Source of the DNA: a virus
Lineage: Duplodnaviria > Heunggongvirae > Uroviricota > Caudoviricetes
Length of the DNA: 64,000 nucleotides
IMG/VR virus record: IMGVR_UViG_3300028886_000031
Coordinates: 32,001 to 96,000 of that record
Reading direction: 5' to 3' (one strand)
In this document: piece after piece, positions 19,633 to 58,243 of the stretch
How the letters are laid out: every line of letters starts with the position of its first letter
Position numbering within the stretch: the first letter of the stretch is position 1
Notes under the pieces: generated by a model
The model's input: the letters and a program-made list of their open reading frames with translations, nothing else
Database searches by the model: none
Told to the model about the DNA's origin: nothing
Translations under genes and position numbers: made by a program

Positions 19633-19641
19633 GGATTTAAT

Positions 19642-35781: not shown

Positions 35782-36232
35782 ACTATTCGAGACACTCTCC
35801 AAATCCAATTGTAACTTAACGGAAGAATATAATCCAAAATCTTACGATTGTACGGAATCTTGTCCATGGTATTCTAAATGTTTCTATAATTGTGAATGTC
35901 CACCTCAAAATCCAAGATTACAGGAGTTCTTTGGTGGATGGCAGAAGTATGCTAGATATGATATAAATGATAAGAAATGTGTTTTATCTAGTATAAATTG
36001 TCCAATTATTAACATATTGCATCTAATTAGTCCAAATAAGGTAGATGATATAATTATTTATAGAGTAGCAAAAAAGAATAAGACACAAAAGAAGTATAAT
36101 ATACGATATTATTGTGTACAGGGCAATAAAACCAAACTGTGTGCTGATATCGTAGAATTGAATAATTTTATGGATAAACGTTGCAGTTATTCAGGAAGAA
36201 AAATTAATCTGGAGGATTTTAAAAATGTTTGA
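35768..36232 (+). CDS. Cys-rich hypothetical protein
   Basis: GGAGG RBS; CTESCPWYSKCFYNCEC. Confidence 0.5.
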   Translation: MNSCKLFETLSKSNCNLTEEYNPKSYDCTESCPWYSKCFYNCECPPQNPRLQEFFGGWQKYARYDINDKKCVLSSINCPIINILHLISPNKVDDIIIYRVAKKNKTQKKYNIRYYCVQGNKTKLCADIVELNNFMDKRCSYSGRKINLEDFKNV

Positions 36233-36674
36233 ATGTAGTAAAACCTATAAGTTTGAATACGCACATCAGCTATTCACATCATATACAAATTTATGTCATG
36301 AAACAATTCATGGTCATAGTGGAAAAGTAAGAATTACTTTTAGAAATAATGAAAATGCCACATTAGATAAAGATAACATGGTCATAGATTTTGGTAAGAT
36401 TAGTGCTACCATAAAAGAATCACTAATGAGTAAATATGATCATGCATTGTTTATCCCAAAGGATTTTCCAAAGGAATATTTGGATATACTTGGTAAATAT
36501 AATAAAAGACTTACAATTACGGATAAGAATCCAACTGCTGAACAATTTGCGTATGATATATTCTATTTTGTAAAGCATATTTTACAATCAGAACCAAATA
36601 ATTGGATGATTTGCGTTACTAAAGTAGAGTTTTGGGAAACGGAATCTGGCTGTGCTACATATCAGGAAAGATAA
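36225..36674 (+). CDS. queD: 6-carboxy-5,6,7,8-tetrahydropterin synthase
   Basis: FEYAHQL, C...IHGHS, MVIDFG, NPTAE, FWETE. Confidence 0.9.
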   Translation: MFECSKTYKFEYAHQLFTSYTNLCHETIHGHSGKVRITFRNNENATLDKDNMVIDFGKISATIKESLMSKYDHALFIPKDFPKEYLDILGKYNKRLTITDKNPTAEQFAYDIFYFVKHILQSEPNNWMICVTKVEFWETESGCATYQER

Positions 36675-40512: not shown

Positions 40513-40571
40513 TTCTCTGGACATTCATATTACTTGTTATTTTTATAACTGGTGGTTGTGTGTCCAGAGAA
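40513..40571 (+). promoter_or_regulatory. Long imperfect hairpin in the leader of the peptidase operon
   Basis: Outer stem TTCTCTGGACA/TGTCCAGAGAA, inner GTTAT/ATAAC, plus G-U-rich pairing. Confidence 0.5.
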
Positions 40572-40593
40572 AAGTACATTCCTTGGTGGGCTA

Positions 40594-41259
40594 ATGAAGT
40601 TCGAAATTGATAATGATGTAGATGTTTCTTTTTCTGGAAGACATTCTAGGGGAACAACTCCAGTCGAATATAGACATCCAAACATTATTGATTTAAGAGA
40701 TTTTTGTTTGCCAACGGATAATCAAGGGAATACACCACATTGTGTTGGCTATACTGTTGGTGGTTTTTTGGAGGTACATAATTGGAAGAACACACATATA
40801 CCTAGACAAATAAATGCAGAGAAATTATATGATTTAGGTAGAAAATATAAAGCTGATACAAGAACTGGAACTCGATTGGAATATGTTTTATCCCAATTGA
40901 AGACAGATGGGTTCATAAAAGGAACTCCAAAAAAGATAGAGACAAAAGATATAAAATATTTTATTCACCAGTATGGTGTTGTGATGTGTGCATTTTACAT
41001 TACAAATGAATGGTATTCGTTAGATAGAAAATATAGAATTAAAGAAAAGAAAACTCCTAAAACTCTCGGTGGTCATTGTGTTTTAGGATGTGGATATTGT
41101 GAGGATGGTTTGTATATACAGAATTCATGGGGGTATAAGAAGTGGGGTAATTATGGTTTTGCCATTGTACCTTGGAATTTGGTATATAAACAATTATCAT
41201 ATTCCATGTGTGTCGATGGAATTGAACTATCCAATATCACGGAGTTTTTTAATGCTTAA
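40594..41259 (+). CDS. Papain-like cysteine peptidase (C1 family)
   Basis: NQGNTPHCVGY (Q and catalytic C), GGHCVLGCGY (H), IQNSWG..WG..G (N). Confidence 0.88.
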   Translation: MKFEIDNDVDVSFSGRHSRGTTPVEYRHPNIIDLRDFCLPTDNQGNTPHCVGYTVGGFLEVHNWKNTHIPRQINAEKLYDLGRKYKADTRTGTRLEYVLSQLKTDGFIKGTPKKIETKDIKYFIHQYGVVMCAFYITNEWYSLDRKYRIKEKKTPKTLGGHCVLGCGYCEDGLYIQNSWGYKKWGNYGFAIVPWNLVYKQLSYSMCVDGIELSNITEFFNA

Positions 41260-42184
41260 AGCTGATCCTAAAGTTCTAGAGAAAATAAAGAAACTATTAG
41301 ATCACCATGCTGGAAGTTTAAAAATAAATTCAGAACATGAAGCATTCTGTGCTTTGGAACTTGCTAAATCCATGATGAAGAAATATCATCTGGATATGAT
41401 GCAAGTGAAAGAGTCATTTGAGGAATCTGATATAACACATAGACCAGTTGATAAATGTTCTGTTTACAAGATTCCAATATGGATGTGTAATCTGATCAAT
41501 ACTGTGAATAATATTTGTAATTGCAGTTGCATATTGGAGAAGGTGCCACAAAGTAGTGGTTACATTCACATAAGCATTGTTTTTGTGTGTCTGGCTGCTG
41601 ATTTAGATAAAGTAACACATTTCTATAATTTCCTTAAGAAAACGGCGTATAAATTAGCGAATAAACACGTTAAAGAGATACATGGAAATTATACGAATTG
41701 GAGATCTTTTTGCGAAGGATTTACTTCTAGACTTTTAGAAAGGTCAAGAGTTTTCAACATAGATATTAGTGAAAATACATGGAAAGAAAGTTCGGACGAA
41801 ACAAGAGATGCTGAGGAATTCAGCGCTGATGATTTCGAAGAGTCCGAAGAGGAAGTAGATGATGATTTTGAAGAATTTGAGAGTGAAGATGATGTATCTG
41901 TGGATGAAGTTCCAGAAAAGAAGAGTGAAATAGATACAGAAATTGCTAAGTATGAACAAAACACAGATATACAATTATACGAATATTTAAGAAACGTTAA
42001 GAAGAAAATAGATTCTTATATCAAAAAGAACATGAATAACATACGATATGAGAATGTAAATAGAAAGTCTAATGTACTTAAGACTTCATATATGATTGGT
42101 AGAGAACAAGCTGAAAACACTAACTTGAAGTTCATTGATAAATCACATCAACTGACTTCGAAAACAAAGGAACAAAAACAATGA
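41252..42184 (+). CDS. DUF2786-like protein with acidic tract
   Basis: LEKIKKLL...SEHEA..AL..A..MMKKY N-terminus and RSFCEGF; GGAG RBS. Confidence 0.7.
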   Translation: MLKADPKVLEKIKKLLDHHAGSLKINSEHEAFCALELAKSMMKKYHLDMMQVKESFEESDITHRPVDKCSVYKIPIWMCNLINTVNNICNCSCILEKVPQSSGYIHISIVFVCLAADLDKVTHFYNFLKKTAYKLANKHVKEIHGNYTNWRSFCEGFTSRLLERSRVFNIDISENTWKESSDETRDAEEFSADDFEESEEEVDDDFEEFESEDDVSVDEVPEKKSEIDTEIAKYEQNTDIQLYEYLRNVKKKIDSYIKKNMNNIRYENVNRKSNVLKTSYMIGREQAENTNLKFIDKSHQLTSKTKEQKQ

Positions 42185-42780
42185 ATACTGATGTCTGCTC
42201 AAAAATATTGCGTGTTGCTACATATGCTATGTCTGCAACGGCACTTGCCCAGAAGCTTGGTAAATCTAAGGGTTATATGATTGCTGATGAGATCCGTCAC
42301 CTTGTTGACAATGGTCAGCTGGTTGAGAATACGTCTGGCGCGTATCCTACTTACAAGGTTGCTGAGCAGCCTGTGAGCACCCGCGCTTGTCAGACGACTG
42401 CTCGTGATACGACTGTTGTTGCTGACACCGTAACTACGCCGGCTGCCAATAAGCTTCCGGAAGGATATGTTGTCTCGAAGGCTGGTAAGCGCAAGTCGGA
42501 TAACAAGGTTGGCCGTAAGGTCACTCTTCCGAATGGCACCAGCTATTTTGTTGAGAATGGTGATACTCTTGTAAATATCAACGATGGTGATTACGTGAAG
42601 ATTATCACCTCGAAGAATGGAGCTGTCCCTGAGGCTCAGATTTCTACTCTCATTGAGCAGTATACTCACGAGCGTTCTATGACCGCTTACACCATTAAGC
42701 ACAAGTTTGGATCCATCGGCCGTGATCAGGCTGTTGGTGTTCTTGACTATAAGATCACTAAGTGCAACAAGGCTGCATGA
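42181..42780 (+). CDS. Winged-helix protein with candidate C-terminal ubiquitin-like (beta-grasp) domain
   Basis: N-terminal SATALAQKLG...IRHLVDNGQL wHTH; C-terminal beta-beta-alpha-beta-beta pattern ending KCNKAA; upstream of E2/E1/JAB genes. Confidence 0.5.
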   Translation: MNTDVCSKILRVATYAMSATALAQKLGKSKGYMIADEIRHLVDNGQLVENTSGAYPTYKVAEQPVSTRACQTTARDTTVVADTVTTPAANKLPEGYVVSKAGKRKSDNKVGRKVTLPNGTSYFVENGDTLVNINDGDYVKIITSKNGAVPEAQISTLIEQYTHERSMTAYTIKHKFGSIGRDQAVGVLDYKITKCNKAA

Positions 42781-42803
42781 TTTAATAGCTAGCAGCTAAA
42801 CTG

Positions 42804-42840
42804 ATTGCCGGACCTACGTATTAAACGTGGGTCCGGCAAT
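42804..42840 (+). terminator. 16-bp stem-loop between the Ubl-like and E2-like genes
   Basis: ATTGCCGGACCTACGT-attaa-ACGTGGGTCCGGCAAT (one G-U pair), weak T tract. Confidence 0.7.
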
Positions 42841-42856
42841 TTACTCGGAGAAACAA

Positions 42857-44581
42857 ATGTCAGAAGAAACACCTCAAACAAATAGTCAAGTAATAACTGA
42901 TGTAAAAACTGCACTTGTTAATGTTCTGAGAAATGATGCTTCGTTATGTAATTACGAAAGATTTACGGATTATGGAAAAATAGAAAGGGATAGTTATAAT
43001 GATAAGTATATGTGGACTACAATACAATGTGATTTGAATCATGATAATACAGCTAACAATTCTCAGATTATTAGAATTGTTAATAAAATGGATACGAAGT
43101 TTTTCACTATGCTATTTGGATATAACGGAAGCCCGTCTTCTATAGGTCTAGATAATGGCGTAGCTATTTTATATAGTAATATGTTAATAAATATGCCTTC
43201 TACGTCACGTGATAGACGTCAAACGAGAGTCGATGATTGTCTAAAGAGTTTAATTAGTAGAATGGTAAATTTGGATTGTACATTTAAAATCAAAGGAACG
43301 TGTTTAACAGCCCTTGATTTTATAGGTAAGAATCCAAATCATACCTCTACTGAAGCTGAATTCACATTTAATCTATATGAATATGTAAAAAAGTTTATTT
43401 TTATTGGAGATAAATGTTATCTACTTGCTGTAATGGATAAATATCATTATATATATGTTAGCCAGAAAACGCTGGAAATTATTTATAAGTTGGATACAAC
43501 TGCTGATAAATCACAATTTAGAGATGCTGTTTTGAAACTGTATGGATATGCTAGTTCTAATTGTTTGTTGATGTTAAATGTCCCAATGGCACAATATATC
43601 ACGAATGATATAACAAATCTCGTTATAAATGATACATTAAAAGATAATGTGTTTGCTGAATTAGATAAAAATGGCTCAAGTGATTTCAGTGAACTTTTTG
43701 AGTATAAATTTAACAATGATGCTGTGACGGATGATTATATCAAGAGTAATATTAAACAAATAATTTATACTTATGTAGATAATTATGTCAAGACATATTA
43801 TTGTTTAAAGGATTTTAGCTTTGTAAGCTTAATAGACAATATAAAGTATAAGATGAAAGGTCTTTATGCTAGCAAGATCAACGAAGCCTTTCGTAACGGA
43901 CTTGTAATATCTAGGGTTTGTCAACGGTGCGGGTGGAATATTTATGACAATAAGACATACCGTGATGTGAGACCGAGTACGATGAACTATAATAACCAGT
44001 ATATATGGAAAGATGTAAATATTATCCCAGATACATGCGTTCTCTATGATACTGATGCTAGAGATTTTGGAATAGATAAGTATAGAAAACTTAATGAAGC
44101 TGGAATTCATAAACTCAGAACCGAATATGGGATTTGTGTTAAAAGATTGTTTATATGTTTAAATGAAGGCACTATGCTATGTATTGGAAAGCATCCTAAT
44201 GTCTCTTCGTCCGGTCAAGTCTGTATGGGAGATATAAAAGGAACAATTGTTTTCCAGGATGTATCAGATGATGTAATAATATCTAACTTAGCAACATGTG
44301 AAAAATTACTGACATGTATTCATTATGCTAGTTCATATACAAGTAGTGGTCAGAATGTATTTACAAATCCAGATTACAGTTTGGACTATAAGAATTTTGT
44401 AAATGGATTTGATTCTGATAAATCGGCAAGAGAAGCTGCAAAGAAAGATGAAAATTTAATAAAGAACGCTGTGCAGTTGGAAGATGACTTTGAAGAAGAA
44501 TCCATGGATTCTTCAGATAATTCTTCGACCGAGCAACAAGGTTCTGGAATAATAGAATCTGATGACTTTGAGGAGATATAA
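42857..44581 (+). CDS. Large protein with C-terminal prokaryotic E2 (UBC-like) domain
   Basis: GGAG RBS; KHPNVSSSGQVCMGD at about 44190-44233 matches the E2 HPN-x7-C active-site motif; acidic tail. Confidence 0.65.
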   Translation: MSEETPQTNSQVITDVKTALVNVLRNDASLCNYERFTDYGKIERDSYNDKYMWTTIQCDLNHDNTANNSQIIRIVNKMDTKFFTMLFGYNGSPSSIGLDNGVAILYSNMLINMPSTSRDRRQTRVDDCLKSLISRMVNLDCTFKIKGTCLTALDFIGKNPNHTSTEAEFTFNLYEYVKKFIFIGDKCYLLAVMDKYHYIYVSQKTLEIIYKLDTTADKSQFRDAVLKLYGYASSNCLLMLNVPMAQYITNDITNLVINDTLKDNVFAELDKNGSSDFSELFEYKFNNDAVTDDYIKSNIKQIIYTYVDNYVKTYYCLKDFSFVSLIDNIKYKMKGLYASKINEAFRNGLVISRVCQRCGWNIYDNKTYRDVRPSTMNYNNQYIWKDVNIIPDTCVLYDTDARDFGIDKYRKLNEAGIHKLRTEYGICVKRLFICLNEGTMLCIGKHPNVSSSGQVCMGDIKGTIVFQDVSDDVIISNLATCEKLLTCIHYASSYTSSGQNVFTNPDYSLDYKNFVNGFDSDKSAREAAKKDENLIKNAVQLEDDFEEESMDSSDNSSTEQQGSGIIESDDFEEI

Positions 44582-44582
44582 A

Positions 44583-44885
44583 ATGAGATATTCAGAGAGG
44601 TGTGTCTCAATAAGACCACATAAAAATTCACAACGGTATTGTCAGGATTTTGAAGTGATAAAATATGATCCAGACGATGATATTGGAAATATAACATATC
44701 AAACGGACACACAGCCAATATTATCGAATGAATTCTGTAAAATTTCGATTGATTGGGATGATAGAAAAATCTATTTAAAATGTATTGATAATAAAGGAAA
44801 TATCTTAATTAAAAAGACTTTAAAAAATAAAGTAGCAACTCCGGCAGTATTGCAACCACAGGAACCTGAAAGTGAGGAATCTTAA
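44583..44885 (+). CDS. Hypothetical protein within the E2-E1 cluster
   Basis: GAGGAG RBS; beta-rich sequence. Confidence 0.55.
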   Translation: MRYSERCVSIRPHKNSQRYCQDFEVIKYDPDDDIGNITYQTDTQPILSNEFCKISIDWDDRKIYLKCIDNKGNILIKKTLKNKVATPAVLQPQEPESEES

Positions 44886-44887
44886 GA

Positions 44888-45751
44888 ATGTCTAGCGCTG
44901 ATCTCTATAATAGACAAGAAAAATTGCAGCTTATTAATTATGATAATGCTGTTGTAATAGGATGTGGCGGAATAGGAAATTGGGTAGCTTTAGATTTAGC
45001 ATTGTCTGGAATGGTAGGTAGTCTTTATTTGATTGACCCAGATACAATTGAAGAGTCAAATCTAAATAGAACTTTATTTGATTACACGGATATAGGATGT
45101 TATAAAGTAGATTGTGTAACTGATCAAATAATAAGAAGAAGACCAAATCAAATAATAAACAAAATGAAATGTTTTATGAATGATAGTTTAGCGGAGAAAT
45201 TTATAGAGAAACTGTTTAATGGTGATAATTCTTATTATCATACAGATACTGTTTTTGTAGATTGTCGTGATGATATATACACTGATTGTTATCAGTTAAA
45301 TTGCAAACTGTATAAAGTTGGATATGATGGAACGGAGATAACAATAGACGGCAATCCAAGATTAACGGAAGTTCATGGTCAGCGTGGTGGATCATATTCT
45401 GTTACTCCATCTTATGTCGGATCCGCTCAGCTTGCAGCAATTCTTGTTGTAAATGATTTGTTATATCCAAAACATACAGATATGTATAGGCGTGATGGTT
45501 CTAATATGCCAACTAGACATGCTATATACAAATGGGCAAAGAAAGAGGATTTTCCATATATCAATCAGAGACCTTGTTTTGAATTTGATGAAATTGGAAG
45601 GTTAAATGATACAATCAATATCAATGTTTCAGATATTCTTCAGAAATTTATGGAAAATAATCACCAGTATGTTATTCCCAATGAAACTTGGGACAATCTT
45701 CCAAACAAAGTCACAGAGGAGTCTGAAAACAATGGAACAGAACAACAATGA
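44888..45751 (+). CDS. ThiF/MoeB/E1-like adenylyltransferase
   Basis: YNRQ, VVIGCGGIG, LIDPDTIEESNLNR, G.YKV, VDCRD. Confidence 0.9.
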   Translation: MSSADLYNRQEKLQLINYDNAVVIGCGGIGNWVALDLALSGMVGSLYLIDPDTIEESNLNRTLFDYTDIGCYKVDCVTDQIIRRRPNQIINKMKCFMNDSLAEKFIEKLFNGDNSYYHTDTVFVDCRDDIYTDCYQLNCKLYKVGYDGTEITIDGNPRLTEVHGQRGGSYSVTPSYVGSAQLAAILVVNDLLYPKHTDMYRRDGSNMPTRHAIYKWAKKEDFPYINQRPCFEFDEIGRLNDTININVSDILQKFMENNHQYVIPNETWDNLPNKVTEESENNGTEQQ

Positions 45752-46619
45752 GATAGATAATATTTGTCCGAAGATAACTGGGTTTTCTGAATCTACTTCA
45801 GAATCCGAGGAATTGGAAATGTTTGACGATGAAGATCTTATGGAAGCAGAATCTGTAAATGTGACCAGTGATAAAAAATTTGATCCTAAGTCTATTGAAG
45901 TTGGTGAATATATAAACAAGGATATAGTTCCGGTTAAAAGGATTAAATGTATTATTCCATCTAAACTTTTAGATAGTATTAGGGAGATCGAAATAGGTGT
46001 CAATAAGAAATTTGGATCATCTAATGAATTCTCTATATTCATTCATGGTGATTATGATCCGAATGGATATTTGGTTGTTAGTGAGGATTTTTATATTCCA
46101 AAGCAAGTTGTATCTGGTGCATCTGTTCAATATAATGAAGAACCAGAACCACATTATAATGGATGTTTGCATAAGCATCCAGATGGATGTACAAGTTTTA
46201 GTGGAACGGATGAAAAATATATTAATAGCAATTTTGATTTTTCATTGCTATATGTTCAGCAAAAAATATCTAAAGGAATTATTAATATTCATTATGATGG
46301 CATACATAGAATACAATGTGATCTGAATATTCAAATGGATAACGAAAAATGTGTATGCGGAATTAACATTGATAATATAACAAAAAATGTTCCGAAGACT
46401 TATCAATTAAACAGACCTTATAATCCATTGGATGTTCCTACTCTTCCAGGAATGTATTTTCCTGGATTTAATGAAAAAACTGGAAAAGAAACAAAGGAGA
46501 TAATAATGCCGCATGTATATCCAAATGCACTAAATTTAGATGATGAATCAGAACCGGAAACGGATTCTATGGAATTCTTTTCCGATCCGGAATTATATCC
46601 TAACTTGCTAGGTGATTAA
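45732..46619 (+). CDS. JAB/MPN-domain metalloprotease
   Basis: NEF (catalytic E) ... IPKQ.V ... LHKHPDG...FSGTD (HxH-x7-S-x2-D); GAGGAG RBS. Confidence 0.85.
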   Translation: MEQNNNEIDNICPKITGFSESTSESEELEMFDDEDLMEAESVNVTSDKKFDPKSIEVGEYINKDIVPVKRIKCIIPSKLLDSIREIEIGVNKKFGSSNEFSIFIHGDYDPNGYLVVSEDFYIPKQVVSGASVQYNEEPEPHYNGCLHKHPDGCTSFSGTDEKYINSNFDFSLLYVQQKISKGIINIHYDGIHRIQCDLNIQMDNEKCVCGINIDNITKNVPKTYQLNRPYNPLDVPTLPGMYFPGFNEKTGKETKEIIMPHVYPNALNLDDESEPETDSMEFFSDPELYPNLLGD

Positions 46620-47683
46620 TGAAAATAATTTGTATTGGTGATATTCATGCTAGCGGGTTCGGGGATGACCCGCTAGTAGATAACCTCCCAGAAAGATTAT
46701 ATTATATAAAGAAATCCCTTGAATATATAATGGATTATGGCAGAAAAAACGGAATAGAACATTATGTAATTCTTGGTGATGTTTACCATGATAAAACAAT
46801 TATATATAATACAAGTCAGGCAATGTTGCTTGATTTCTTTAAGCAGTATGAAGATAGAACATTTTATATAATAAGTGGAAACCACGATTTATCATCTACT
46901 GGTGAAAACCAAAAGTCTGCAATACTGGCTCTTGGTGAATTGAATAATGTTCAGTGCTTTACAAAACCAGTAATTATAAATAAAAGTCAATTTGTTAAAG
47001 TAGATACTCCATTGTTCTTTGTACCATATTCAGGAAACTTTCTAGATAGTATAAAGAACTTTAAGAACATAGAACCTGATACAATATTGTTTTCACACAT
47101 AGGTTTAAATGAGGCTGTTCTACAATCTGGTTTGAGTAGAGTTGACAAACTTAAATTATCTGATCTAAAACAGTTTAAATTAGCAATATTGGGTCATTAT
47201 CATAAACCTCAAGATTTTGGTAATGATCAGACTCATGTATGGTATGCTGGATCTCTTATTCCAAGAGACTGGAATGATAAAAATGAAAAGAAAAGGTTTC
47301 TAGTTCTAGATACAATTACTAAAGAAGTTCAAAGTGTAGATTTAGATTGTGGTGTTCCACAGTATATTGAGATTGTAATTCCTCCTAAGAGTACTCCTGA
47401 ATTCATTACATCTGAAATGAATAGAGCTAAAATTATAAAGAAACAAGGAAATAAAGTTCGAGTTATTAATAAAAACAATCCGAAAATCAAAGAAGATGAT
47501 ATATCCGATATGATTGTATTGGAACAGCAGGAAATAGATGTTACAAATCGTGGAATCACGGTTGAGCAATCTAAACTGGATCAATGCAAGAAATACATGG
47601 AAATTAAAAACATTCCGGAAGATGAACGTGAGGCATATTTAAAAGTGCTAAATGATTCTAAACTCTTGGAGGTGACAGAATGA
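46619..47683 (+). CDS. sbcD: SbcD/Mre11-like (T4 gp47-like) nuclease
   Basis: GDIH, LGDVYH, SGNHD, FSH, LGHYH, YAGS. Confidence 0.88.
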   Translation: MKIICIGDIHASGFGDDPLVDNLPERLYYIKKSLEYIMDYGRKNGIEHYVILGDVYHDKTIIYNTSQAMLLDFFKQYEDRTFYIISGNHDLSSTGENQKSAILALGELNNVQCFTKPVIINKSQFVKVDTPLFFVPYSGNFLDSIKNFKNIEPDTILFSHIGLNEAVLQSGLSRVDKLKLSDLKQFKLAILGHYHKPQDFGNDQTHVWYAGSLIPRDWNDKNEKKRFLVLDTITKEVQSVDLDCGVPQYIEIVIPPKSTPEFITSEMNRAKIIKKQGNKVRVINKNNPKIKEDDISDMIVLEQQEIDVTNRGITVEQSKLDQCKKYMEIKNIPEDEREAYLKVLNDSKLLEVTE

Positions 47684-48003
47684 GTGACATATACACAAAT
47701 TCCAAAAATCTTCGTAATGTTCCAATACCATATGAATTTCCAAATATGGCTGATTTATGTATGAATAACGGACATCCTTACGATGGATACGTAGATTTCA
47801 TGGTAATAACGGATTCTGATTTTGAAAGGGATATGTTGTTGCAAGATAAATTGATAAATGCCGAAACATTAATACATAGTAGAATTAGAGCTGAATATCC
47901 AAATAGAAGATATAATTTAAAATTAAGTGTTGGTTGTACGATAGGTCATGTTTATTATAGATTATATTATCTGCTTGATTTCTTAGACAATAATCGCTGG
48001 TAA
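47680..48003 (+). CDS. Hypothetical protein
   Basis: GGAGG RBS; ATGA overlap. Confidence 0.55.
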   Translation: MSDIYTNSKNLRNVPIPYEFPNMADLCMNNGHPYDGYVDFMVITDSDFERDMLLQDKLINAETLIHSRIRAEYPNRRYNLKLSVGCTIGHVYYRLYYLLDFLDNNRW

Positions 48004-48017
48004 GAGAAAGGATCAAA

Positions 48018-48350
48018 ATGATAAGGAACGATTTCGTATCAAATAGTTCTTCGTCCAGTTTTGTTGTTGGATTTGTAACTAAAAAAGATTTTGTCGATTT
48101 CAAAAATAAAATATTAGATGAATGGGGTCGAGATAATAAGTTCGGAAAATTATTAGAACAATATTTTGAAAATAATATTCAAGATAAAGATGATTATGAT
48201 GAAGAAAGAGTCGATAAATACGAAGTATTACTTAGAGGATTATACCAATCTACAGAAGATGATTTTGAAACATTGGCACCAGGACTTTTAGTATACGAGC
48301 ATATTTCGTATGGTGATGAAAATGAAGGAATTCAGCTTCTTTATGATTAA
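48018..48350 (+). CDS. Phage protein with N-terminal IRxDFVSNSSSSSF motif
   Basis: MIRNDFVSNSSSSSFVV N-terminus; AAAGGA RBS. Confidence 0.7.
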   Translation: MIRNDFVSNSSSSSFVVGFVTKKDFVDFKNKILDEWGRDNKFGKLLEQYFENNIQDKDDYDEERVDKYEVLLRGLYQSTEDDFETLAPGLLVYEHISYGDENEGIQLLYD

Positions 48351-48365
48351 AAAGAAAGGATTCGT

Positions 48366-50993
48366 ATGATTAACTTTATATTGGATAAAATCCAGTTGAG
48401 AAATGTTCGTAGATATGGTGATGAAATGATGGAAATGGATTTTCCATTAAACAACCTTACTGTATTTACAGGGAAGGTCGGTGCTGGAAAATCCACAATC
48501 CTTAAAGCTGTTTCAATGGCTTTATATGGAGATGATGGTGGTGCAAAAAACCAAAAATTATCTATAGATGATCTTGTAAATGAAAAGAATAAAAAGAATT
48601 TGGAAATACATTTGTATTTTCATTCTACTGTAGATGATAAACCAGAGGAAACAAAATATGAAATACATTTGTTTCATAAACATTCAAAATATAATAATAA
48701 ACTTGTATTTGTAAAAGATGGAAAAGATATATCACTTGCAAGTAAAACTGAGACGTATGAGTTAATCGAAAGAACGTTAATTCCCAGCAGCGTTTATCAT
48801 AATACATACTATTTTACCCAAAACTGCAAGAATTTCTTTACATCATTAACAAATTCAGAACAGAAAGAGATATTTAACTCTATATTGGATCTTTCAGAAT
48901 ATGAAAGTTATTATGAAAACACTAAGAAGGAACTTGAAAAAGTAACTTCTGATTGTGAGAAATTAAATTCTACATATCTTGTACAACAAGAGAAAGTAAA
49001 GAATTTAGAGAATAACATAGAAGATAAAAAGAAGAATTATGATTATCAGGTTACAACATCTAAAGGTAAAATTTCTATTATAGAGCAGAAATTAGAAGCT
49101 GCTGGAATGGAGTTAGATAGATTAACAGAGGAAATAGAAAAATATGGTAATGTAGATGACGAACTTGTTAAATTGGAAATGCAGAATCAAGAACGTCGTC
49201 TAAATATGGAATCAGAAACAACTAAGTTAAAAGAAGAATATAAAAAACTTATGGATGATTTCGATTCTAATGAGGTTCATAATACTAAGCAAAAGTATAT
49301 AAATCTCAGAGGAGAACGTTCTCGTGATATTCAATCTAAGATTCAAAATATTAATGCTGAGATAGAGAAATTAAAAGTTGAAGAAGAGAAGATGTTAGCT
49401 GAAATAGATTCCAAATCATCAGATAAAATATCTGAGTTAATGTCTGAAAAAAATGATGTTATTTCTAATAAAAAAGATGAGATTAAGAAATATGAATTGG
49501 AAGTTGCTAAATTGGGTTCAGAATGCCATCGTCAGGAATTATTAGTACAAGATGAGACGAGAAAACAAATAAGCGAAATAGAAAAGAAAATAAGTGTAGA
49601 AAGAGAATTTATTTTTCAAACAGATGCTGGTTTAAATCTATTAAGGACTGAGTATACAGATAAAATTTCTAAACTTAAGAATTATAGAGAAGCACTAGAT
49701 AAACCAGATGCTATATGTTCTGAATGTGGTCAAAAATTGGTTAATAAAGACCATATTAGAAAACATATTGTTGAATTAGAAAAAGAGTTAGAAAAGATTA
49801 AATCTGAAGGTATTAAAGGTAAAGAAGCAAAAGATAAACGTCAAAAAACAATTGATGAGTATAATAAACAAATAGAAGATTTAGAAAATAATTTAAAATC
49901 TAAAATAAAAGAACTTGTTCAAAAGAAGGATGAAGATTCTAAAGAATTTAAGTCTAAATTGGATATATTGTATAAGGAAGTAGATAAGATAAATGATGAA
50001 TATTTTATTAAGGTAAATGAGGTTAAAGAATCAAAAATACAATTAAAGAATACAATTATGGAGTCATCTATTAAAGATGGTGATTTAAAGAAATCTGAAT
50101 TGGAATCTTTGAAAAAAGAACAATTAGAAATAGATAATCAAATTAAAGCTGAATATAAAGAAGAACTAGATAAACTTCGTGAAGGATTAAATAAGAAATT
50201 AGAAGATATCAAACAGAAAATTCAAGATATTGAATCTAGTTATTCTAATTATAAACAGACAACTTACATAGAAAAATATCAAGATTTAAAAATTCGTAAA
50301 ACGAATCTGGATAATATAAAGAAGGAACAAGATGATTGTAATATTTGTATAGAGAAATACAAGAATGAAATTAAAGTGATTAATGAAGGAATAGAATCCT
50401 CTAAGCAATTTTGTGATAACTATCTTAAGGAATATGAAGTTCTTCTAAATACAGAGAATGACAAAATAAATAAAATGAATCAGGATCTTAAGGAATATAA
50501 TAAGAAGAAAGAAATACTGGAGTTCTGGAAAGTGGCGTTTTCTGATACTGGAATTAAATCTATGTTAATAGATTCCGCGTTACCACATATGAACGAATGC
50601 GTCAGTACAGAACTAGAAAGAACTGCACCTGGAAAGTTTACGGTTTCGTTTGATACATTGTCTGAAACGAAGTCAGGTAAGATTCGTGATAAATTTAATA
50701 TCAATATTTTGAATAACGAAACTCAATCTACGGGTCATAAGAAATTGTCCGGAGGCGAAATGAGGATCGTAGATTTGTGCTGTATGTCGGCATTAAGATC
50801 TCTAGCTGAAAGATTATATCAAAAGAGATTCTTCCATATCTTCTATGATGAGATATTGGATTCTCTGGATGATGAGTGTAAACAGATGTTCTGTGCTAAT
50901 GTTAAGGTTCAATCCACAACAGGTAGAAATATAACATTGGTAACACACGATCTTCCGGATGATGTAGATCCAGATAGAGTGTTTCCGTTCTAA
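48366..50993 (+). CDS. sbcC: SbcC/Rad50-like (T4 gp46-like) SMC ATPase
   Basis: Walker A GKVGAGKS, coiled coils, zinc hook CSECGQ, LSGGE, Walker B IFYDE, LVTH. Confidence 0.92.
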   Translation: MINFILDKIQLRNVRRYGDEMMEMDFPLNNLTVFTGKVGAGKSTILKAVSMALYGDDGGAKNQKLSIDDLVNEKNKKNLEIHLYFHSTVDDKPEETKYEIHLFHKHSKYNNKLVFVKDGKDISLASKTETYELIERTLIPSSVYHNTYYFTQNCKNFFTSLTNSEQKEIFNSILDLSEYESYYENTKKELEKVTSDCEKLNSTYLVQQEKVKNLENNIEDKKKNYDYQVTTSKGKISIIEQKLEAAGMELDRLTEEIEKYGNVDDELVKLEMQNQERRLNMESETTKLKEEYKKLMDDFDSNEVHNTKQKYINLRGERSRDIQSKIQNINAEIEKLKVEEEKMLAEIDSKSSDKISELMSEKNDVISNKKDEIKKYELEVAKLGSECHRQELLVQDETRKQISEIEKKISVEREFIFQTDAGLNLLRTEYTDKISKLKNYREALDKPDAICSECGQKLVNKDHIRKHIVELEKELEKIKSEGIKGKEAKDKRQKTIDEYNKQIEDLENNLKSKIKELVQKKDEDSKEFKSKLDILYKEVDKINDEYFIKVNEVKESKIQLKNTIMESSIKDGDLKKSELESLKKEQLEIDNQIKAEYKEELDKLREGLNKKLEDIKQKIQDIESSYSNYKQTTYIEKYQDLKIRKTNLDNIKKEQDDCNICIEKYKNEIKVINEGIESSKQFCDNYLKEYEVLLNTENDKINKMNQDLKEYNKKKEILEFWKVAFSDTGIKSMLIDSALPHMNECVSTELERTAPGKFTVSFDTLSETKSGKIRDKFNINILNNETQSTGHKKLSGGEMRIVDLCCMSALRSLAERLYQKRFFHIFYDEILDSLDDECKQMFCANVKVQSTTGRNITLVTHDLPDDVDPDRVFPF

Positions 50994-51949: not shown

Positions 51950-54900
51950 ATGAAGATTGATTGGCTCAATATCGATGAGTTCTGTAAGAACTTACCTGAA
52001 GTAACAACATCTAAGATATATTCTAAAAAGATCTTTCATCCAGAAGGATTATTCTCTGAACAGATTTTTGGACCTGTGAAGAGTTATACATGCTCTTGTG
52101 GAATTTATTATGGGCGTTCGAAACATAATACAGTATGTCCAATTTGTGGAACTAAAATAGAGAATAGCAATGTTCGTAGAAAGAACATGGCTAAGATTGT
52201 ATTGCCGTTTGGGGTAATTAATCCAATTATGCTCTTTACAATTAAGAGAGTGAAGTTGGAGATTTATAACATCATCATGAGCATGATCATGGATAATGAT
52301 GTTATGGGTTATTACTTCGACGAGAATAAAGAAAAGTTTATTAAGGTTCTTAAACCTACGTTAGACACAGAAGGAACGGCAATTCCGGATGGAGTAACGT
52401 TATATAGTGGTCCAAAACAGACTTTCGATCTTGTTAAGTTTGAAGCTGAACGTAACATGGAAACGAGTCGTTATTGGAAGTTTATATATGATAGACTTGA
52501 TAATTATTGGATGCATAATATAGGAGTTGTTCCACCAGAGTTTCGTCCAGTATCTAAGAGTAACAATCAACAGATGCGTGACGAGATGAACAAGTTCTAT
52601 TTGAAGATATTGGAATTCAAGGCTGTCAATAAAGATAATCAACTTAATCTCCAGCCGACATCTGAATCTGAGTCAGAACCTGAATCTGTCAATGAGAATG
52701 AAAGTGTTGCTGAGATAGAAAATGTAGAACAAGCTATAGATATGCTTGCTGAAAACATTCAGCATCAGGTAGATGAATCACAACAGACAGAGACTACACA
52801 GACTGTTAATCCAGTTCCTCAGCAGGCTCTAGATGATATTTATAGGTTTAGCTTTAAAAACCTTCAGAATTACATACTTGATCTTTATCAATTTATATTT
52901 GATAAATTCTCTAAGAAATCTGGTCTGATTCGTGGATCTATTCTTGGTAAAAGAATTGACTTTTCTGGTAGATGTGTAATTGATCCGGATCCAAACTTGG
53001 AACTAGATCAGTGCGGAATTCCGTATTTAATGGCACTAGAGTTTTATAAACTTCAAGTTGCTAATAGATTGTTGGAGTTGAAAAACTTCAATGGACATAA
53101 GTTCTACAGATTTGACCCAGTTTTGGATTTCATTGATGAATGTATCGAGAAACATGATTTCTGTTTGTTTGATATTGTAAGTGAAATAGCAAATAATAAG
53201 TTGTTTATATTAAATAGACAGCCAACACTTCATAGAATGGGATTAATGTCATTCCGTTGTGTTGTTCATAAGGATTATGTCATCAAGACGCATCCATTTA
53301 TATGTGAGCCATACAACGCAGACTACGATGGTGATCAGATGGCTGCGTATATTTCATTGTATCCGGAAACGGAACAATCTAATAGAGATCATCTATTTAT
53401 TATGGAGAACTTGATATCACCGTCTACTGGTGATGTATGTTTGTCTGTAAACCAAGATGTTGTTTTGAGTCTGTATCTTCTAACACAAGACAATGCAACT
53501 CCAAAGACAACATATTCGGGACCTAAGATTTGGCCTGGAAAGAAAGATGGTGATGTTCTTGAAACATATGAAGGCAGGATAGAGTTCAATAACATTTTAC
53601 CGAGTAACTTCCCATTCTTTAATGAGGAACTCACAAAAGGAAAAATACATAGTCTTTTGAATGTTATATGTAAAAACTATGATAAAGATACAATCAAGAA
53701 AGTACTTGATAACATCAAGGTTCTTGGTTTTACAAAGACTACACAGATTGGTTCTACGTTCTCGTTAAAGAATCTAGCAACGGATGATAGAATTGCAGAA
53801 CATATAACTAAGATTGTAGATGATAATAAGAAGTCTCTGGCACAAAAGTTCTTTGAACTTGCTGAATCACCATTGAAGAAGGAAGTCGAAAATAACTTCC
53901 CGTATGCTAACTTTATTAGATCTGGATCACGTGGTACTTGGGATCAAGCTGACCAGTTAATATGGTGTCGTGGATATGTATCTAACTCTAAAGGACAAGT
54001 TGTGGAGACTCCAATTAAACACAATCTTGTAACTGGTCTAACTAGAGATGAGTTCTTAACATCTTGTTATGGTGCTCGTAAGGCACTTTTGGATGTAGCG
54101 TTAAATACTGCTGTGTCTGGTTATCTAACTCGTAAACTTGTCTATGGACTTGTTAATGTAGAGTTGGATGAAAACTGTGATGATTGTGGAACAGATCAAT
54201 ATATGGAACTAACAATTCCTGAGGAATTGACAGATGAAAAGATAGAGCAATTAACAGCTGATATTGCTGATCCTAAATTGAAGCAACTTAAGATAGATGA
54301 ACTTAAGATTAAGAAGGCTAACAGCATTAGTCCAATAAAACTTGCTAAATCTTTAAGATATAGATGGTATAAGGACGAGGATGGTCAGCTTAAGATGGTT
54401 ACTGAAAATGGATTCAAGAATCTCTTAGGAAAGACAATTAAACTTCGTTCGCCCATCTTCTGTAAGAATCCGAGAATATGTAAGAAATGCTATGGTGATT
54501 TGTACAAACAACTTCATAGTAAATATATCGGTGTTATTGCTGCACAAGCACTTGGTGAGGTTGCAACTCAGCTCACGTTGAGAACATTCCATGTGTCTGG
54601 AGTTGCCCAAATGAACAAGGGTCAGCAGGATGATACACAACAAGATATTATTAACGATCTTACGAACGTGAAGAAGATTCTTCATGGTGGTAATGATTGG
54701 AATACAACTGGTTATAAAGATATGATTATGAATCTGTTCCATATCTATTCAAACCATAAAACTCTAATGTTAAATCATTTTGAGTTAGCTGTCTCCCAGC
54801 TAATGAGATCTGGTTCTAGACGCTGGAGAAATGATCCGAATAGAGATGAACATGAACCTAATATAGTATCTATTGAGAAAGTTCCATCACTTGAATCTCT

Positions 54901-55012
54901 ATTCTTGGCACTAGCTTTCTCAAAGCCATATGTTTATATTATAGGTGCTATTATGGGCAATGCCCAAACAACAGATGGTATTCTAGAAAAAATGCTTATA
55001 AACAAAGTCTAA
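51950..55012 (+). CDS. rpoC: DNA-directed RNA polymerase beta'-like subunit, set 2 (probable non-virion RNAP)
   Basis: AAGGAGG RBS; GLFSEQIFGP, Zn finger CSCG..CPICG, LGKRIDFSGR, NRQPTLH, NADYDGD at 53315-53335, SGYLTRKL, TQLTLRTFH. Confidence 0.95.
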   Translation: MKIDWLNIDEFCKNLPEVTTSKIYSKKIFHPEGLFSEQIFGPVKSYTCSCGIYYGRSKHNTVCPICGTKIENSNVRRKNMAKIVLPFGVINPIMLFTIKRVKLEIYNIIMSMIMDNDVMGYYFDENKEKFIKVLKPTLDTEGTAIPDGVTLYSGPKQTFDLVKFEAERNMETSRYWKFIYDRLDNYWMHNIGVVPPEFRPVSKSNNQQMRDEMNKFYLKILEFKAVNKDNQLNLQPTSESESEPESVNENESVAEIENVEQAIDMLAENIQHQVDESQQTETTQTVNPVPQQALDDIYRFSFKNLQNYILDLYQFIFDKFSKKSGLIRGSILGKRIDFSGRCVIDPDPNLELDQCGIPYLMALEFYKLQVANRLLELKNFNGHKFYRFDPVLDFIDECIEKHDFCLFDIVSEIANNKLFILNRQPTLHRMGLMSFRCVVHKDYVIKTHPFICEPYNADYDGDQMAAYISLYPETEQSNRDHLFIMENLISPSTGDVCLSVNQDVVLSLYLLTQDNATPKTTYSGPKIWPGKKDGDVLETYEGRIEFNNILPSNFPFFNEELTKGKIHSLLNVICKNYDKDTIKKVLDNIKVLGFTKTTQIGSTFSLKNLATDDRIAEHITKIVDDNKKSLAQKFFELAESPLKKEVENNFPYANFIRSGSRGTWDQADQLIWCRGYVSNSKGQVVETPIKHNLVTGLTRDEFLTSCYGARKALLDVALNTAVSGYLTRKLVYGLVNVELDENCDDCGTDQYMELTIPEELTDEKIEQLTADIADPKLKQLKIDELKIKKANSISPIKLAKSLRYRWYKDEDGQLKMVTENGFKNLLGKTIKLRSPIFCKNPRICKKCYGDLYKQLHSKYIGVIAAQALGEVATQLTLRTFHVSGVAQMNKGQQDDTQQDIINDLTNVKKILHGGNDWNTTGYKDMIMNLFHIYSNHKTLMLNHFELAVSQLMRSGSRRWRNDPNRDEHEPNIVSIEKVPSLESLFLALAFSKPYVYIIGAIMGNAQTTDGILEKMLINKV

Positions 55013-55027
55013 TGAAAGGATGAAATA

Positions 55028-58000
55028 ATGATAAGGATTCCTTCTTTTGAATTGTCTGATTTAAATGCTTTTAACTTTCGTGAGTATGAATGGGATTCTA
55101 ACACGATTATAAATGTTATAAAACAGATACTTCAGAATTCAGAGAAATATAACATTACCGTCAAGAATGTCTCAATAGAGGAAAAACCAGAAAAGAGTAA
55201 CTCCAGTGAGATCAGAAAGACGTTATCAAAGATTCTTAAAATAGATCTTGTTTATCATAATGGTGACACAAGTATAGATATTCCGTTGGACTATGAAATA
55301 CCTTGGCTAATTAACAACCATTTCTATATTGGTGGTAATTACAAGGTAGCAATATATCAACTTTATGACAAGCCAATTATTAATGTTCAGAAAAAGAACA
55401 TCATTAAAATAAAGACTACGTTGTTTCAATCGTTTAACGTAGAAAAGAAGAAACCAACGAAAAAGAGTAAGATAAATTTTGAGGCACAGTTCTTCAATAA
55501 GAAATTTCCTTATGTTTATCTGCTAATAGCTAAACATGGAATCGATTGGTGTAAACAGACATTTAAGTTGGATGATAACTTTGAATATATTGATGATGCT
55601 GAATATGCTAATAAAACGGAAGAGGTTCAACTACTTCGTAGTGATATGAAGTATGTTCTTTCTAACGCTGCTATTGATAAAGCCCGTCTATTTAGGACAG
55701 ATTTTCCAAAAATGACGGATGCTGAATTTGTACAAAATATGGATCTAATTACAGATCTGGATATTTTCACAAGTAGGTATTTAAGTACTGGAAACATTAT
55801 TGATGAGTTCCTTGCTATATATGAGAATGGAACTTATGATGATTCAGATTACAGCAATAAGAGACTTCGTTTCTCAGAGCAGGTGATATATTGCTGGGTT
55901 ATCAAAGATCTTTATAGTCTGTTTAACCAGATTAAGACAAAGAGCATTAAGAAATTGAGATTCAATATAAACAATAAGGTTATTCTACAGAATGCCAATG
56001 TTTCAAGTATTGTTCAGTTCGACACATGTATTAATCCATTGTATGAATTAGCTATATTGTCTAGAACATCTCTATCTGGTCCTGGTGGATTTAAGAAAGA
56101 GAATGTTCCTACGAACATGAGGGATATTCATAGTTCAATGCTTCATATAATAGATCCGTCTGATACTGGTGACCGTGATGGCTGCGGAACAATTCAATAT
56201 ATTGTACCTTCTGCTAAATTTAAGGAAGATGGTTGTTTAGAAAGTTGTGGACCGAATTCTCCGGTTAACTCTGTGTCTACATCTTTTGTACCTCTTTGTG
56301 AACATGATGACCCTGTTAGACTTCAAATGAGTTCATCTCAGCAACGCCATGCTGTAATGTTGCAGAATTTCGACTCTGCAATTATTCAGTCTGGCATTGA
56401 GGGAATGTATTCTAACCATACATCTTTCTTATATACAGCAAAGGATGATGGAACAGTCATCTATAAAAATCGCGACATTGTAATTGTTAAATATAATAAC
56501 GGCACATTCCAGACATTACATATTGGATATAGAAAACTATATATTAGTGTTCTAGATTTCTATCATGTGTATTATAATGTTGGTGATACATTTAAGAAGG
56601 GTGATATTATTGCTGAGTCTAATTTCATGAAGAGTGGAAAAATCTGTCTCGGCAAGAACCTGAGAGTATGTATAACTCCTTATTATGGTCTAAACTACGA
56701 GGATGCGATTGTGCTATCTGAAAGGGTTAGACGTGAAAAGATGTTTACATCTGTTCACTATAAAGAGATTGTAATAGAAGTTCCGAAGAATAAGGTTCTG
56801 TTGAATATCACGGATAACAAAGATACCTATAAGGTAATTCCAAGTATTGGTGATCAGGTTAAACGTGGCGAGGTAATAGCTAAACTCAAAACAATTGATA
56901 AAGAGCGTTTCCCGAGCGTAATCTTTGAGAAGTGTTCTGAAGTTAAGAGTGATGAGGATGGTGAGGTAATAGATGTTAAGGTATATGCTAACAAATGGAA
57001 TACTGACTTTGAGCAATTTAATGATTTCGTTAAGAGTTCAATAGCTCAGAATAAGATAGAAAGGGATAACCTTGTCAAGGAAGTTTCTGAATATCTAAAT
57101 AGTGACGAACTTGAACAACTTGTATCTACATTGGATATTAATAAATCCGAGAAAAACAATTACAAGTACAAAGGTGATGTCATTGATGGAGTTAGAATTG
57201 AATTAACAATTAAATATGACCGTGATCTTCAAATAGGTGATAAACTGGCAAATAGACATGGTAATAAAGGAACAATTTCAAGGTTTGTTCCCGATGAGTT
57301 AATGCCTGTAAATCAGGAAGATGGAACTCGTGCCGATATTGTGATTAATCCTCTTGGTATTATTTCACGTATGAATGTCGGTCAGGTATTTGAATGTCAT
57401 TTGTCCGAAGCTGTTATGAACCTTCGTAAGAAGTGTCATGTAATGCTTCATGGTGCAAATGACACAGTAGTAATAAAGGATCCTGATATAGATGGTGTAA
57501 AGAATTATATTAATGGATTTATTGATATAATCGATTGTACAGAAAATAAAACATATTCGACTCAAGCTAAAGAAATTATTAATGGGTTGAATTTTATGCA
57601 ATTGTGTTCATTGGTTAAAAACTTTACTGTAATTCAGCCTCCATTCCAGAGCATTGGAACGAAGGAACTTCAGAAAGCTATGGAATATACAAACACTAAA
57701 TATGAGGTTCGTGTATATGATCCTGTATGCAAAAAGGAAATCAAGAACGACCTTGTATTCGGTTGGCTCTATTATATGAAACTAAATCATATTTCCCAAG
57801 ATAAGATTGCCTATAGAGGAATTGGACCATATTCGGCTAAAACAAATCAGCCGTTGTGTGGCAAATCCCGTAAAGGTGGTCAAAGACTTGGCGAGATGGA
57901 AATATGGGCTGTAATAGCACATGGTGATGAAAAGAATTTAAATGAGTTCATTACAACAAAATCAGATAGTATTCAATTGAGGAACAAGTATATTTCCCAT

Positions 58001-58243
58001 TGTATTGGAAACGAGGAACTCCTCGCAGACCAGGACGATGATAAGGTTCCACAATCACTTAGGTTGTTGGAAAGTTGCTTAAAGTCCATAGGTATAGATT
58101 TTAAGATCAACAGTGAGAAGACTGATGATGAAACCCAAGAGGTGACAGATACGGATCCGATCTTGGATGATCTTATGAATGAGGAAGATATGGAAGTCCT
58201 CGATGATACAAATGATACATACGATAGTGATGATAAGGAGTAA
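55028..58243 (+). CDS. rpoB: DNA-directed RNA polymerase beta-like subunit, set 2
   Basis: SLSGPGG, GLNYEDA, GDKLANRHGNKG, NPLGIISRMNVGQ, YYMKLNH, GGQRLGEME. Confidence 0.95.
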   Translation: MIRIPSFELSDLNAFNFREYEWDSNTIINVIKQILQNSEKYNITVKNVSIEEKPEKSNSSEIRKTLSKILKIDLVYHNGDTSIDIPLDYEIPWLINNHFYIGGNYKVAIYQLYDKPIINVQKKNIIKIKTTLFQSFNVEKKKPTKKSKINFEAQFFNKKFPYVYLLIAKHGIDWCKQTFKLDDNFEYIDDAEYANKTEEVQLLRSDMKYVLSNAAIDKARLFRTDFPKMTDAEFVQNMDLITDLDIFTSRYLSTGNIIDEFLAIYENGTYDDSDYSNKRLRFSEQVIYCWVIKDLYSLFNQIKTKSIKKLRFNINNKVILQNANVSSIVQFDTCINPLYELAILSRTSLSGPGGFKKENVPTNMRDIHSSMLHIIDPSDTGDRDGCGTIQYIVPSAKFKEDGCLESCGPNSPVNSVSTSFVPLCEHDDPVRLQMSSSQQRHAVMLQNFDSAIIQSGIEGMYSNHTSFLYTAKDDGTVIYKNRDIVIVKYNNGTFQTLHIGYRKLYISVLDFYHVYYNVGDTFKKGDIIAESNFMKSGKICLGKNLRVCITPYYGLNYEDAIVLSERVRREKMFTSVHYKEIVIEVPKNKVLLNITDNKDTYKVIPSIGDQVKRGEVIAKLKTIDKERFPSVIFEKCSEVKSDEDGEVIDVKVYANKWNTDFEQFNDFVKSSIAQNKIERDNLVKEVSEYLNSDELEQLVSTLDINKSEKNNYKYKGDVIDGVRIELTIKYDRDLQIGDKLANRHGNKGTISRFVPDELMPVNQEDGTRADIVINPLGIISRMNVGQVFECHLSEAVMNLRKKCHVMLHGANDTVVIKDPDIDGVKNYINGFIDIIDCTENKTYSTQAKEIINGLNFMQLCSLVKNFTVIQPPFQSIGTKELQKAMEYTNTKYEVRVYDPVCKKEIKNDLVFGWLYYMKLNHISQDKIAYRGIGPYSAKTNQPLCGKSRKGGQRLGEMEIWAVIAHGDEKNLNEFITTKSDSIQLRNKYISHCIGNEELLADQDDDKVPQSLRLLESCLKSIGIDFKINSEKTDDETQEVTDTDPILDDLMNEEDMEVLDDTNDTYDSDDKE

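Follow-up and report, generated by a model that had tools for sequence, protein, structure and literature searches.

Does a jumbo phage encode a complete system of its own for attaching a ubiquitin-like (Ubl) modifier to proteins and removing it again? The question was raised by five genes in the 321,650-bp (~322 kb) genome of a jumbo phage from cattle rumen, which an earlier note had read, in the order Ubl, E2, X, E1 and JAB, as a tightly coupled conjugation operon. Analysis of the 64,000-nucleotide stretch that contains them (the window) confirmed five co-oriented open reading frames on the + strand with unchanged coordinates, and profile tests bore out the identities of the E1, E2 and JAB. 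Tight coupling held except between genes 1 and 2, which are separated by a 76-nt gap containing a 17-bp hairpin. The arrangement is more than chance, since the E1 matches ThiF (PF00899) with an E-value of 1.1e-18, over the cut-off, and 45 of 69 distinct viral loci carry the four-gene core (39 ordered Ubl-E2-E1-JAB), so that the synteny proposed across phages was found. Up to the choice of target, it is probable that the E1, E2, JAB and predicted Ubl modifier form a self-contained protein-conjugation cascade.

Dozens of uncultured phages carry the cassette, whose four-gene core is rare in prokaryotic genomes; five of the 69 E1 clusters lie outside the cassette group (four with an E1 only). Searches of cultured phages (INPHARED) with the E1 and JAB of the window and the E1s of two relatives returned generic ThiF matches and no cassette member, as was also the case for plasmids, and a literature search found no paper describing this system. 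The cassette is flanked by DUF2786/DUF7168 and SbcD, the SbcD/SbcC-like nuclease genes (46619..50993, + strand; PHROG 100 and 77) being context outside the cassette. QueD and FolE genes are also present within the window, and 7-deazaguanine genes in the genome. A clamp and clamp loader lie upstream of the Ubl gene in 22–23 of 59 loci, the 23 clamp-linked loci falling in one subtree and therefore counting as one observation, and SbcCD lies downstream in 5 of 59 loci, all from the window's clade. Replication regions also carry unrelated early genes. Based on these neighbours and on a winged helix in gene 1, our tentative guess is that the phage tags its own machinery for DNA replication/recombination, the winged helix steering the tag to DNA. 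It is rather doubtful that the cassette is instead a counter-defence or inter-phage weapon, which would tag proteins of host defences or of a competing phage, or blunt host Ubl-type defences with abundant Ubl and JAB. Bacterial relatives that have been characterised take part in conflicts with phages (PMC10557695, PMC11601603), three cassette copies occur in Ignavibacteria contigs amid host-type genes, and the E2 N-terminal regions and gene X diverge quickly; against this, the cassette keeps its place next to core replication genes within each clade, the order of its genes is strongly conserved and PADLOC matched nothing past generic E1 and weak JAB models.

Gene 2 (42857..44581, + strand; 574 aa from its ATG, with HPNVSSSGQVCMG) encodes ~340 residues of unassigned fold, a UBC domain at ~350–510 and an acidic tail. 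The window protein alone had no Pfam match and the full-length E2 profile had no PDB match. UQ_con matched 4 of the 50 E2 members, and the E2 family profile matched UBE2C (E 1.6e-5), the His and Cys positions being in register. Cys456 is invariant (50/50) and His446 nearly so (48/50). By sequence profile, gene 2 ends in a genuine E2/UBC domain, with the H-P-N motif and Cys in register. Gene 3 (gene X; 44583..44885, + strand; 100 aa) is fast-evolving and confined to the closest clade: an ORF of 76–113 codons lies between E2 and E1 in all four close metagenome loci, one of these ORFs being a clear homologue, and no homologue was found in the wider locus set. Gene 5 (45729..46619, + strand; 296 aa from its ATG) carries the E...HxH...S..D signature of JAB/JAMM metalloproteases as E...HKHP...SGTD. 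Its catalytic residues (i.e. Glu100, His148, His150, Ser158 and Asp161) are all invariant in 62 of 62 sequences, and the JAB profile matches AMSH-like Sst2 at E 1e-8; the window protein alone matched Prok-JAB at E 0.0015, below the cut-off.

Gene 1 (42181..42780, + strand; 199 aa, ending in KCNKAA) is not a plain Ubl. It consists of a winged helix (residues 1–62), a low-confidence linker, two extra strands and a beta-beta-alpha-beta-beta domain that ends in N-K-A-A and whose strand-helix order is compatible with a beta-grasp. No ubiquitin-type chain was among the rows of structure searches (Foldseek, VIA); as these rows were taken up by the winged helix, the absence is no evidence against a beta-grasp. 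NUDIX rows in these searches were weak (E 0.025 and above) and were not counted, and a single-sequence AF2 model (pLDDT 48) was not used for fold claims. The winged helix matches the Z-alpha fold, and other winged helices rank level with it in the top rows; the Asn and Tyr of Z-alpha helix 3, at what we take to be their positions, appear to be absent. An atlas search with the window's C-terminal domain returned no usable match, and the Ubl profile built from 48 small Ubls had nothing under E 0.1 in the PDB. The sequence link of the window family to small Ubls is weak: hhalign of the window Ubl family against the small Ubls gave a probability of 2%, and an HMM from the small Ubls alone missed the window family. 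An HMM of the long forms ranked small Ubls next (18 of the 21 following rows, E 0.017–1), a result that is partly circular. A ThiS model matched 2 of 53 Ubl members (best E 0.0015), and a small relative of gene 1 showed atlas likenesses of 0.91 and 0.89 to ThiS-type clusters. The tail column of the family holds Gly or Ala in 52 of 59 members (G 37, A 15) and Lys in six; Gly itself is absent from the window protein, and the N-K-A-A tail is conserved within its clade. Among 126 database relatives whose tail motif is recognisable, 50 carry extra residues at the C-terminus, and several relatives are head-to-tail 2–3x repeats resembling polyubiquitin, indicating that a processing protease is needed.

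Gene 4 (44888..45751, + strand; 287 aa) encodes a single-domain E1 with the GxGxxG (GCGGIG), N-L-N-R (SNLNR) and Mg-binding Asp features of E1/ThiF enzymes. ThiF/MoeB are its nearest named families, and the family profile matches ThiF at E 6e-25. No CxxC or zinc motif and no catalytic Cys were found; a loop Cys is scattered through 11 of 68 E1s and absent from the window protein. Tyr170, Arg61 and Asp128 are each invariant (68/68) among E1s of 22–71% identity, and Tyr170 precedes the start of a P-S helix in the context G-x-Y...P-S. Bub E1s have an invariant crossover-loop Tyr in the context G-Y...P-S (PMC11601596); the equivalence of the two residues is drawn solely from this motif context, because the hhalign alignment of the phage E1 with a BubCD relative ends at residue 144. 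A quick tree was made of the E1s; because a cutting rule removed 17 genome rows from it, among them the BubCD-like ones, it is silent on kinship with Bub. These features (i.e. a Tyr-for-Cys E1, an Ala terminus as a family feature and a winged-helix fusion) had not been remarked on in the earlier note.

A predicted complex of E1 and gene 1, the pairing suggested earlier, scored 0.70, as compared to 0.01 for the best control; of 157 solved complexes, 116 attained the mark for such scores, as did 2 of 215 mismatched pairs, and the mark applies only roughly here. Runs shared at least 83% of contacts, with partner pLDDT of at least 84. Ala199 of gene 1 contacts the GxGxxG loop and the 143–147 strand of E1, so that an exposed small C-terminal residue is predicted to enter the E1 active site, as in Ubl modifiers. 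This pass may stem from likeness to solved ThiF-ThiS-type complexes. In the model Ala199 also contacts Cys126 of the D-C-x-D motif, a Cys in 58 of 68 E1s, and Tyr170 is not among the confident contacts. Conjugation could on this basis proceed without a covalent E1 intermediate, the E2 Cys attacking the Ubl-adenylate directly (or Cys126 serving) and Tyr170 being structural, and no literature precedent was found for an oxyester-to-thioester hand-off. We consider this unlikely, as Tyr170 is invariant across such divergent E1s and Cys126 is not, ThiF itself shares D-C-T-D, and Bub conjugation is abolished by Y370F (PMC11601596). It is improbable that in the window's clade gene 1 encodes a DNA-binding protein that has lost, or never had, the role of modifier, with E1, E2 and JAB acting on something else: the winged helix, the weak sequence link to small Ubls and the missing terminal glycine would fit, but gene 1 occupies the small-Ubl position in the cassette, its tail is conserved and predicted to dock in E1, and the long-form HMM ranks small Ubls next. 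A pathway that carries sulfur or modifies small molecules or nucleic acids (ThiS/ThiF-like, or linked to the 7-deazaguanine genes) would accord with the ThiF/MoeB affinity of E1, the ThiS-like small relative and the QueD and FolE genes, but is highly improbable given that the genome has no ThiS or rhodanese match (the earlier note had seen no sulfur-transfer genes nearby), that CxxC motifs are absent, that an E2 with an invariant Cys is linked in 50 loci and that QueD adjoins the cassette in only 3 of 59.

Under the preferred reading of a conjugation cascade, an E1 dimer would adenylate the C-terminal Ala199 of the modifier, which, on the pattern of Bub, would pass to Tyr170 as an oxyester and from there to Cys456 of the E2 as a thioester. 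The E2, probably via its large N-terminal region, would join the modifier to target lysines without an E3, and JAB would strip it from targets and, in relatives, also trim precursors. Production of the modifier probably exceeds that of the enzymes, as suggested by the hairpin, the GC content of the Ubl gene and RNA contigs. The hairpin (42803..42841, + strand) lies in a region (42775–42860) that folds at -33.7 kcal/mol (z -5.9; 0 of 200 shuffles as stable); it was not called as a U-tailed terminator and is likely an attenuator or stabiliser. Of 39 loci, 30 have a hairpin of -10 or better after the Ubl gene, 12 after E2 and 7 after E1, and the GC of the Ubl gene is higher in 37 of 39. RNA contigs spanning gene 1 only came from two runs, a weak observation with no DNA control on the same stretch; the lack of X17/X22 RNA cover over genes 2–5 is uninformative, as RNA depth cannot rank genes. 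A promoter scan was at chance level (54 vs 49.3).

The bacterial ubiquitin-like conjugation systems characterised so far serve the host as defences against phages. If the cascade operates, its retention by many unrelated large phages next to their replication genes would mean that viruses infecting prokaryotes use protein tagging for purposes of their own. A bolder version, which we think unlikely, is that a Tyr-E1 oxyester passes to a Cys-E2 thioester throughout a large family, most of it viral, and that in the clade of this jumbo phage an Ala-ended modifier with a Z-alpha-like domain tethers targets to DNA during replication; such a DNA-binding modifier would broaden the notion of a Ubl. As all four proteins are small, reconstitution in E. 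coli is feasible and the chemistry is directly testable.

Membership of the named PRTRC, CBASS or Bil types, with which the operon had been compared, was not borne out, and the cassette also lies outside Bub. PRTRC systems (Iyer et al. 2006 class 6d; PMC1779556) likewise lie on mobile DNA and have a stand-alone Ubl with an E1, a Cys-E2 and a JAB, but the phage E1 reached 21.7 bits where the PRTRC_ThiF model requires 144.75, and there was no Prok_Ub, Prok-E2 or PRTRC ParB match. Type II CBASS Cap2/Cap3 (10.1101/2022.03.31.486616) shares a ThiF-like E1, a Cys-E2 and a JAB acting on a protein C-terminus, whereas Cap2, in which E2 is fused to E1, has two catalytic Cys and acts on a CD-NTase, and the phage has separate genes, a small modifier and no adjoining CD-NTase. 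The PRTRC-related cassette of two phages, the crAss-like cr111_1 and Flavobacterium phage FpV4, has an E1 with Cys at the loop position and the order Ubl-E2-JAB-E1, and its Ubl and E2 candidates did not match the phage-family profiles. Bil types I/II (BilABCD; PMC10557695) likewise have separate Ubl, Cys-E2, JAB and E1 genes and no E3, but they are host defences, their order is Ubl-E2-DUB-E1 as compared to Ubl-E2-E1-JAB, and BilD is an IAD-AAD-CYS protein with a catalytic Cys in place of a single domain lacking the loop Cys. Bub operons (6E/DUF6527; Citrobacter BubAB-BubCD-BubE; PMC11601596; PDB 9ea4, 9ea5) have in common with the phage cassette a homodimer-type E1 with no catalytic Cys and an invariant Tyr in the loop before the P-S helix (equivalent by motif context), together with a JAB, a Ubl, an E2 and no E3. 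They differ in their Ubl-E2, JAB-E1 or E2-E1 fusions (four separate genes in the phage), in BubE (DUF6527; none among the phage flanking genes or genome), in a Tyr-to-Pro spacing of 9 in BubCD as compared to 4 in the 287-aa phage E1, and in the Ala end and phage-borne location of the phage system. The Bub E2 uses Ser and the phage E2 Cys (50/50). What appears to be new here is an E1 with an invariant Tyr170 and neither catalytic Cys nor zinc motif that is yet paired, unlike Bub, with a Cys-E2, a pairing that would represent chemistry between the canonical and Bub pathways.

All five open reading frames assigned by the earlier note to a ubiquitin-like conjugation cassette on the forward strand (42181-46619) were confirmed at their positions, each with a plausible start. 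The candidate modifier gene (gene 1, 42181-42780), encoding a winged helix and a beta-grasp-patterned domain ending in Ala199, is followed by genes for an E2-like protein (gene 2, 42857-44581), the gene X product (44583-44885), an E1 (gene 4, 44888-45751) and a JAB protease (gene 5, 45729-46619). The tight coupling claimed for these genes holds for the E2-X, X-E1 and E1-JAB junctions, which overlap or are spaced by a few bases, but not for genes 1 and 2, whose 76-nt gap contains a 17-bp hairpin (42803-42841; z -5.9). Directly 5' of the cassette (40552-42184) are genes for a papain-like peptidase (weak Pfam C1 match, E 0.012) and a DUF2786/DUF7168 protein, the latter common to three of 59 loci.

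Assignment of gene 4 as a ThiF/E1 was upheld by a match to the ThiF family (E 1.1e-18); its scores were under the cut-off of all specific NCBIfam models. The glycine-rich loop, Arg61, Asp128 and Tyr170 were invariant among 68 aligned relatives (22-71% identity). Gene 4 encodes neither a CxxC motif nor a Cys in the loop following the K-x-G-Y-D-G strand; CxxC was absent in 64 of the 68 relatives and a loop Cys occurred in 11, at scattered positions. As a single sequence, gene 2 had no Pfam match, and residues 1 to 340 had no fold assignable by profile search. Its C-terminal domain contains G-x-H-P-N-V-S...V-C-M-G-D, kept in 15/15 close relatives, and a profile of 50 viral domains (Cys in 50, His in 48) matched UBE2C (E 1.6e-5) with His and Cys in register, the next matches being mostly other E2s. 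Gene 5 likewise carries the five JAMM residues of a JAB protease, invariant in 62/62 sequences, and the family profile matched AMSH-like proteases (E 1e-8). One cassette (L030:5231-6973) has two E2 genes in tandem. Some Ubl relatives (P0087, P0107, P0104, P0114, P0123, P0153, P0168 and L010:929-1387) consist of a small Ubl repeated two to three times head-to-tail, as in polyubiquitin, with the tail motif at every junction and Lys in the tail column of some.

The source contig (321,650 bp, 31% GC) is a virus record of 100% estimated completeness, has its first 100 nt repeated at its end, and encodes a terminase, portal, tail sheath, DNA polymerase and clamp loader; the best-matching sequencing runs containing it were bovine gut metagenomes. 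Multisubunit RNA polymerase genes form two separate pairs (window 16567-23970 and 51950-58243; compare phages with virion and non-virion polymerases). QueD, FolE, QueC-like and TGT-like genes (window 36225-36674 and 58247-58897; L254:10387-11667; L249:9398-10792) likely serve 7-deazaguanine DNA modification, and a cytidyltransferase/NUDIX gene adjoining a nicotinamide phosphoribosyltransferase gene (L255:16184-18631; genome ~271-274 kb) is likely an NAD+ reconstitution module. The 15 tRNA genes of the source genome include a tRNA-Ser (244519-244608) called with anticodon ACT, which is uncommon among bacteria.

Distribution was examined by an E1 alignment search of IMG/VR, in which the best 80 of 160 relatives, one earlier locus and the window gave 69 clusters (90% identity). 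The synteny anticipated across phages was observed, the four-gene core being complete in 45/69 clusters, with the order Ubl-E2-E1-JAB in 39, as scored with a Ubl profile seeded by the tail motif and including the window sequence. Six of nine loci scored as lacking E2 had a weak E2-profile match between Ubl and E1 (E 3e-4 to 2.8). Searching with one DNA pattern gave 50 viral stretches, each having both a family E1 and a JAB gene close by; 10 of these were contigs independent of profile building. The family was not found in cultured phages by tblastn with four queries. In a quick tree, the 72 rows of cassette E1s grouped together (SH-aLRT 89, not starred). Members of the clade containing the window (5 rows, support 98) have in common the fusion to a winged helix and SbcCD genes downstream of the cassette. 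All four close metagenome contigs have a small ORF between E2 and E1, and one has the full order Ubl-E2-X-E1-JAB-SbcD. In GTDB (52/64 parts scanned), 9/120 matches were family members; two adjoin clamp and clamp-loader genes, as phage loci do, one of the two having an E1 identical to a viral E1, and three lie amid host-type genes in Ignavibacteria contigs, indicating that the family is mainly, though not exclusively, viral. These Ignavibacteria contigs (L109, L151 and L160; 99-487 kb) carry one to three acidic paralogues of ~100 aa 5' of the cassette and E2 candidates with weak or no profile match; in one genome the cassette is present twice. E1-like proteins with inactive and active domains, some adjoining JAB genes, occur in Chloroflexota, Latescibacterota and Woesearchaeota records (L090, L096, L113, L122, L138 and L140).

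A hairpin of <= -10 kcal/mol lies 3' of the Ubl gene in 30/39 loci (E2, 12; E1, 7), and Ubl GC exceeds E1 GC in 37/39, both being counts across related loci that overstate independence. Gene 1 ranks 12 of 290 genes in the genome for C-ending codon use. It is covered by contigs in four rumen RNA runs from two studies, two having long pieces there only, and contig ends (42757, 42765 and 42811) lie near the hairpin; these contigs, assembled without a DNA control, are a weak hint of expression.

The sequence data establish the set of genes, its conservation across relatives and the catalytic residues it keeps. The cassette probably carries out conjugation as such. Ala199 of the modifier would be adenylated by E1, and Ubl-E1 docking was obtained in structure prediction. 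The modifier would then pass to E1 Tyr170, a relay borrowed from Bub by analogy and marginally favoured, and on to E2 Cys456 and lysines of targets, with JAB as putative editor of conjugates. The winged helix and gene neighbours tentatively suggest phage DNA metabolism as the target: clamp and loader genes are neighbours in 22-23/59 loci, all within one subtree, and SbcCD in five. Counter-defence as the purpose of the cassette is nearly as likely as this DNA-metabolism target; a sulfur-carrier role is unlikely.

The cassette was compared with known systems. Gene content resembles Bil and the E1 resembles Bub, but the cassette falls outside both by their defining tests, and likewise outside type II CBASS and PRTRC. 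In Bub (PMC11601596), Tyr370 is the sole invariant loop residue and Y370F abolishes conjugation. BubCD has G-Y, eight residues and P-S, whereas the window E1 has G-x-Y, three residues and P-S; an hhalign alignment of the window E1 family with a BubCD relative did not cover the Tyr region. E1-like genes only are reported for Asgard viruses in the portion consulted of 10.1101/2021.07.29.454249, and the main text of PMC7824862, as far as accessible, mentions no JAB, ThiF or UBC. No description of a phage-encoded Ubl-E2-E1-JAB family was found in the main texts of mostly open-access papers; phage copies might be among the operons tabulated in the Bub and Bil papers. A different cassette, a candidate Ubl-E2-JAB-E1 with a Cys-type E1, occurs in crAss-like cr111_1 (L258:1788-5663) and Flavobacterium phage FpV4 (L257:1610-5621), so that annotated genomes already include E1 and JAB genes carried together by phages. 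Both cassettes adjoin primase and UDG genes and bear a thiamine biosynthesis annotation; FpV4 has been cultured and is hence accessible to infection tests. Set beside these systems, the window cassette is real, conserved and carried by phages, and encodes an apparently undescribed variant of predicted ubiquitin-like conjugation.
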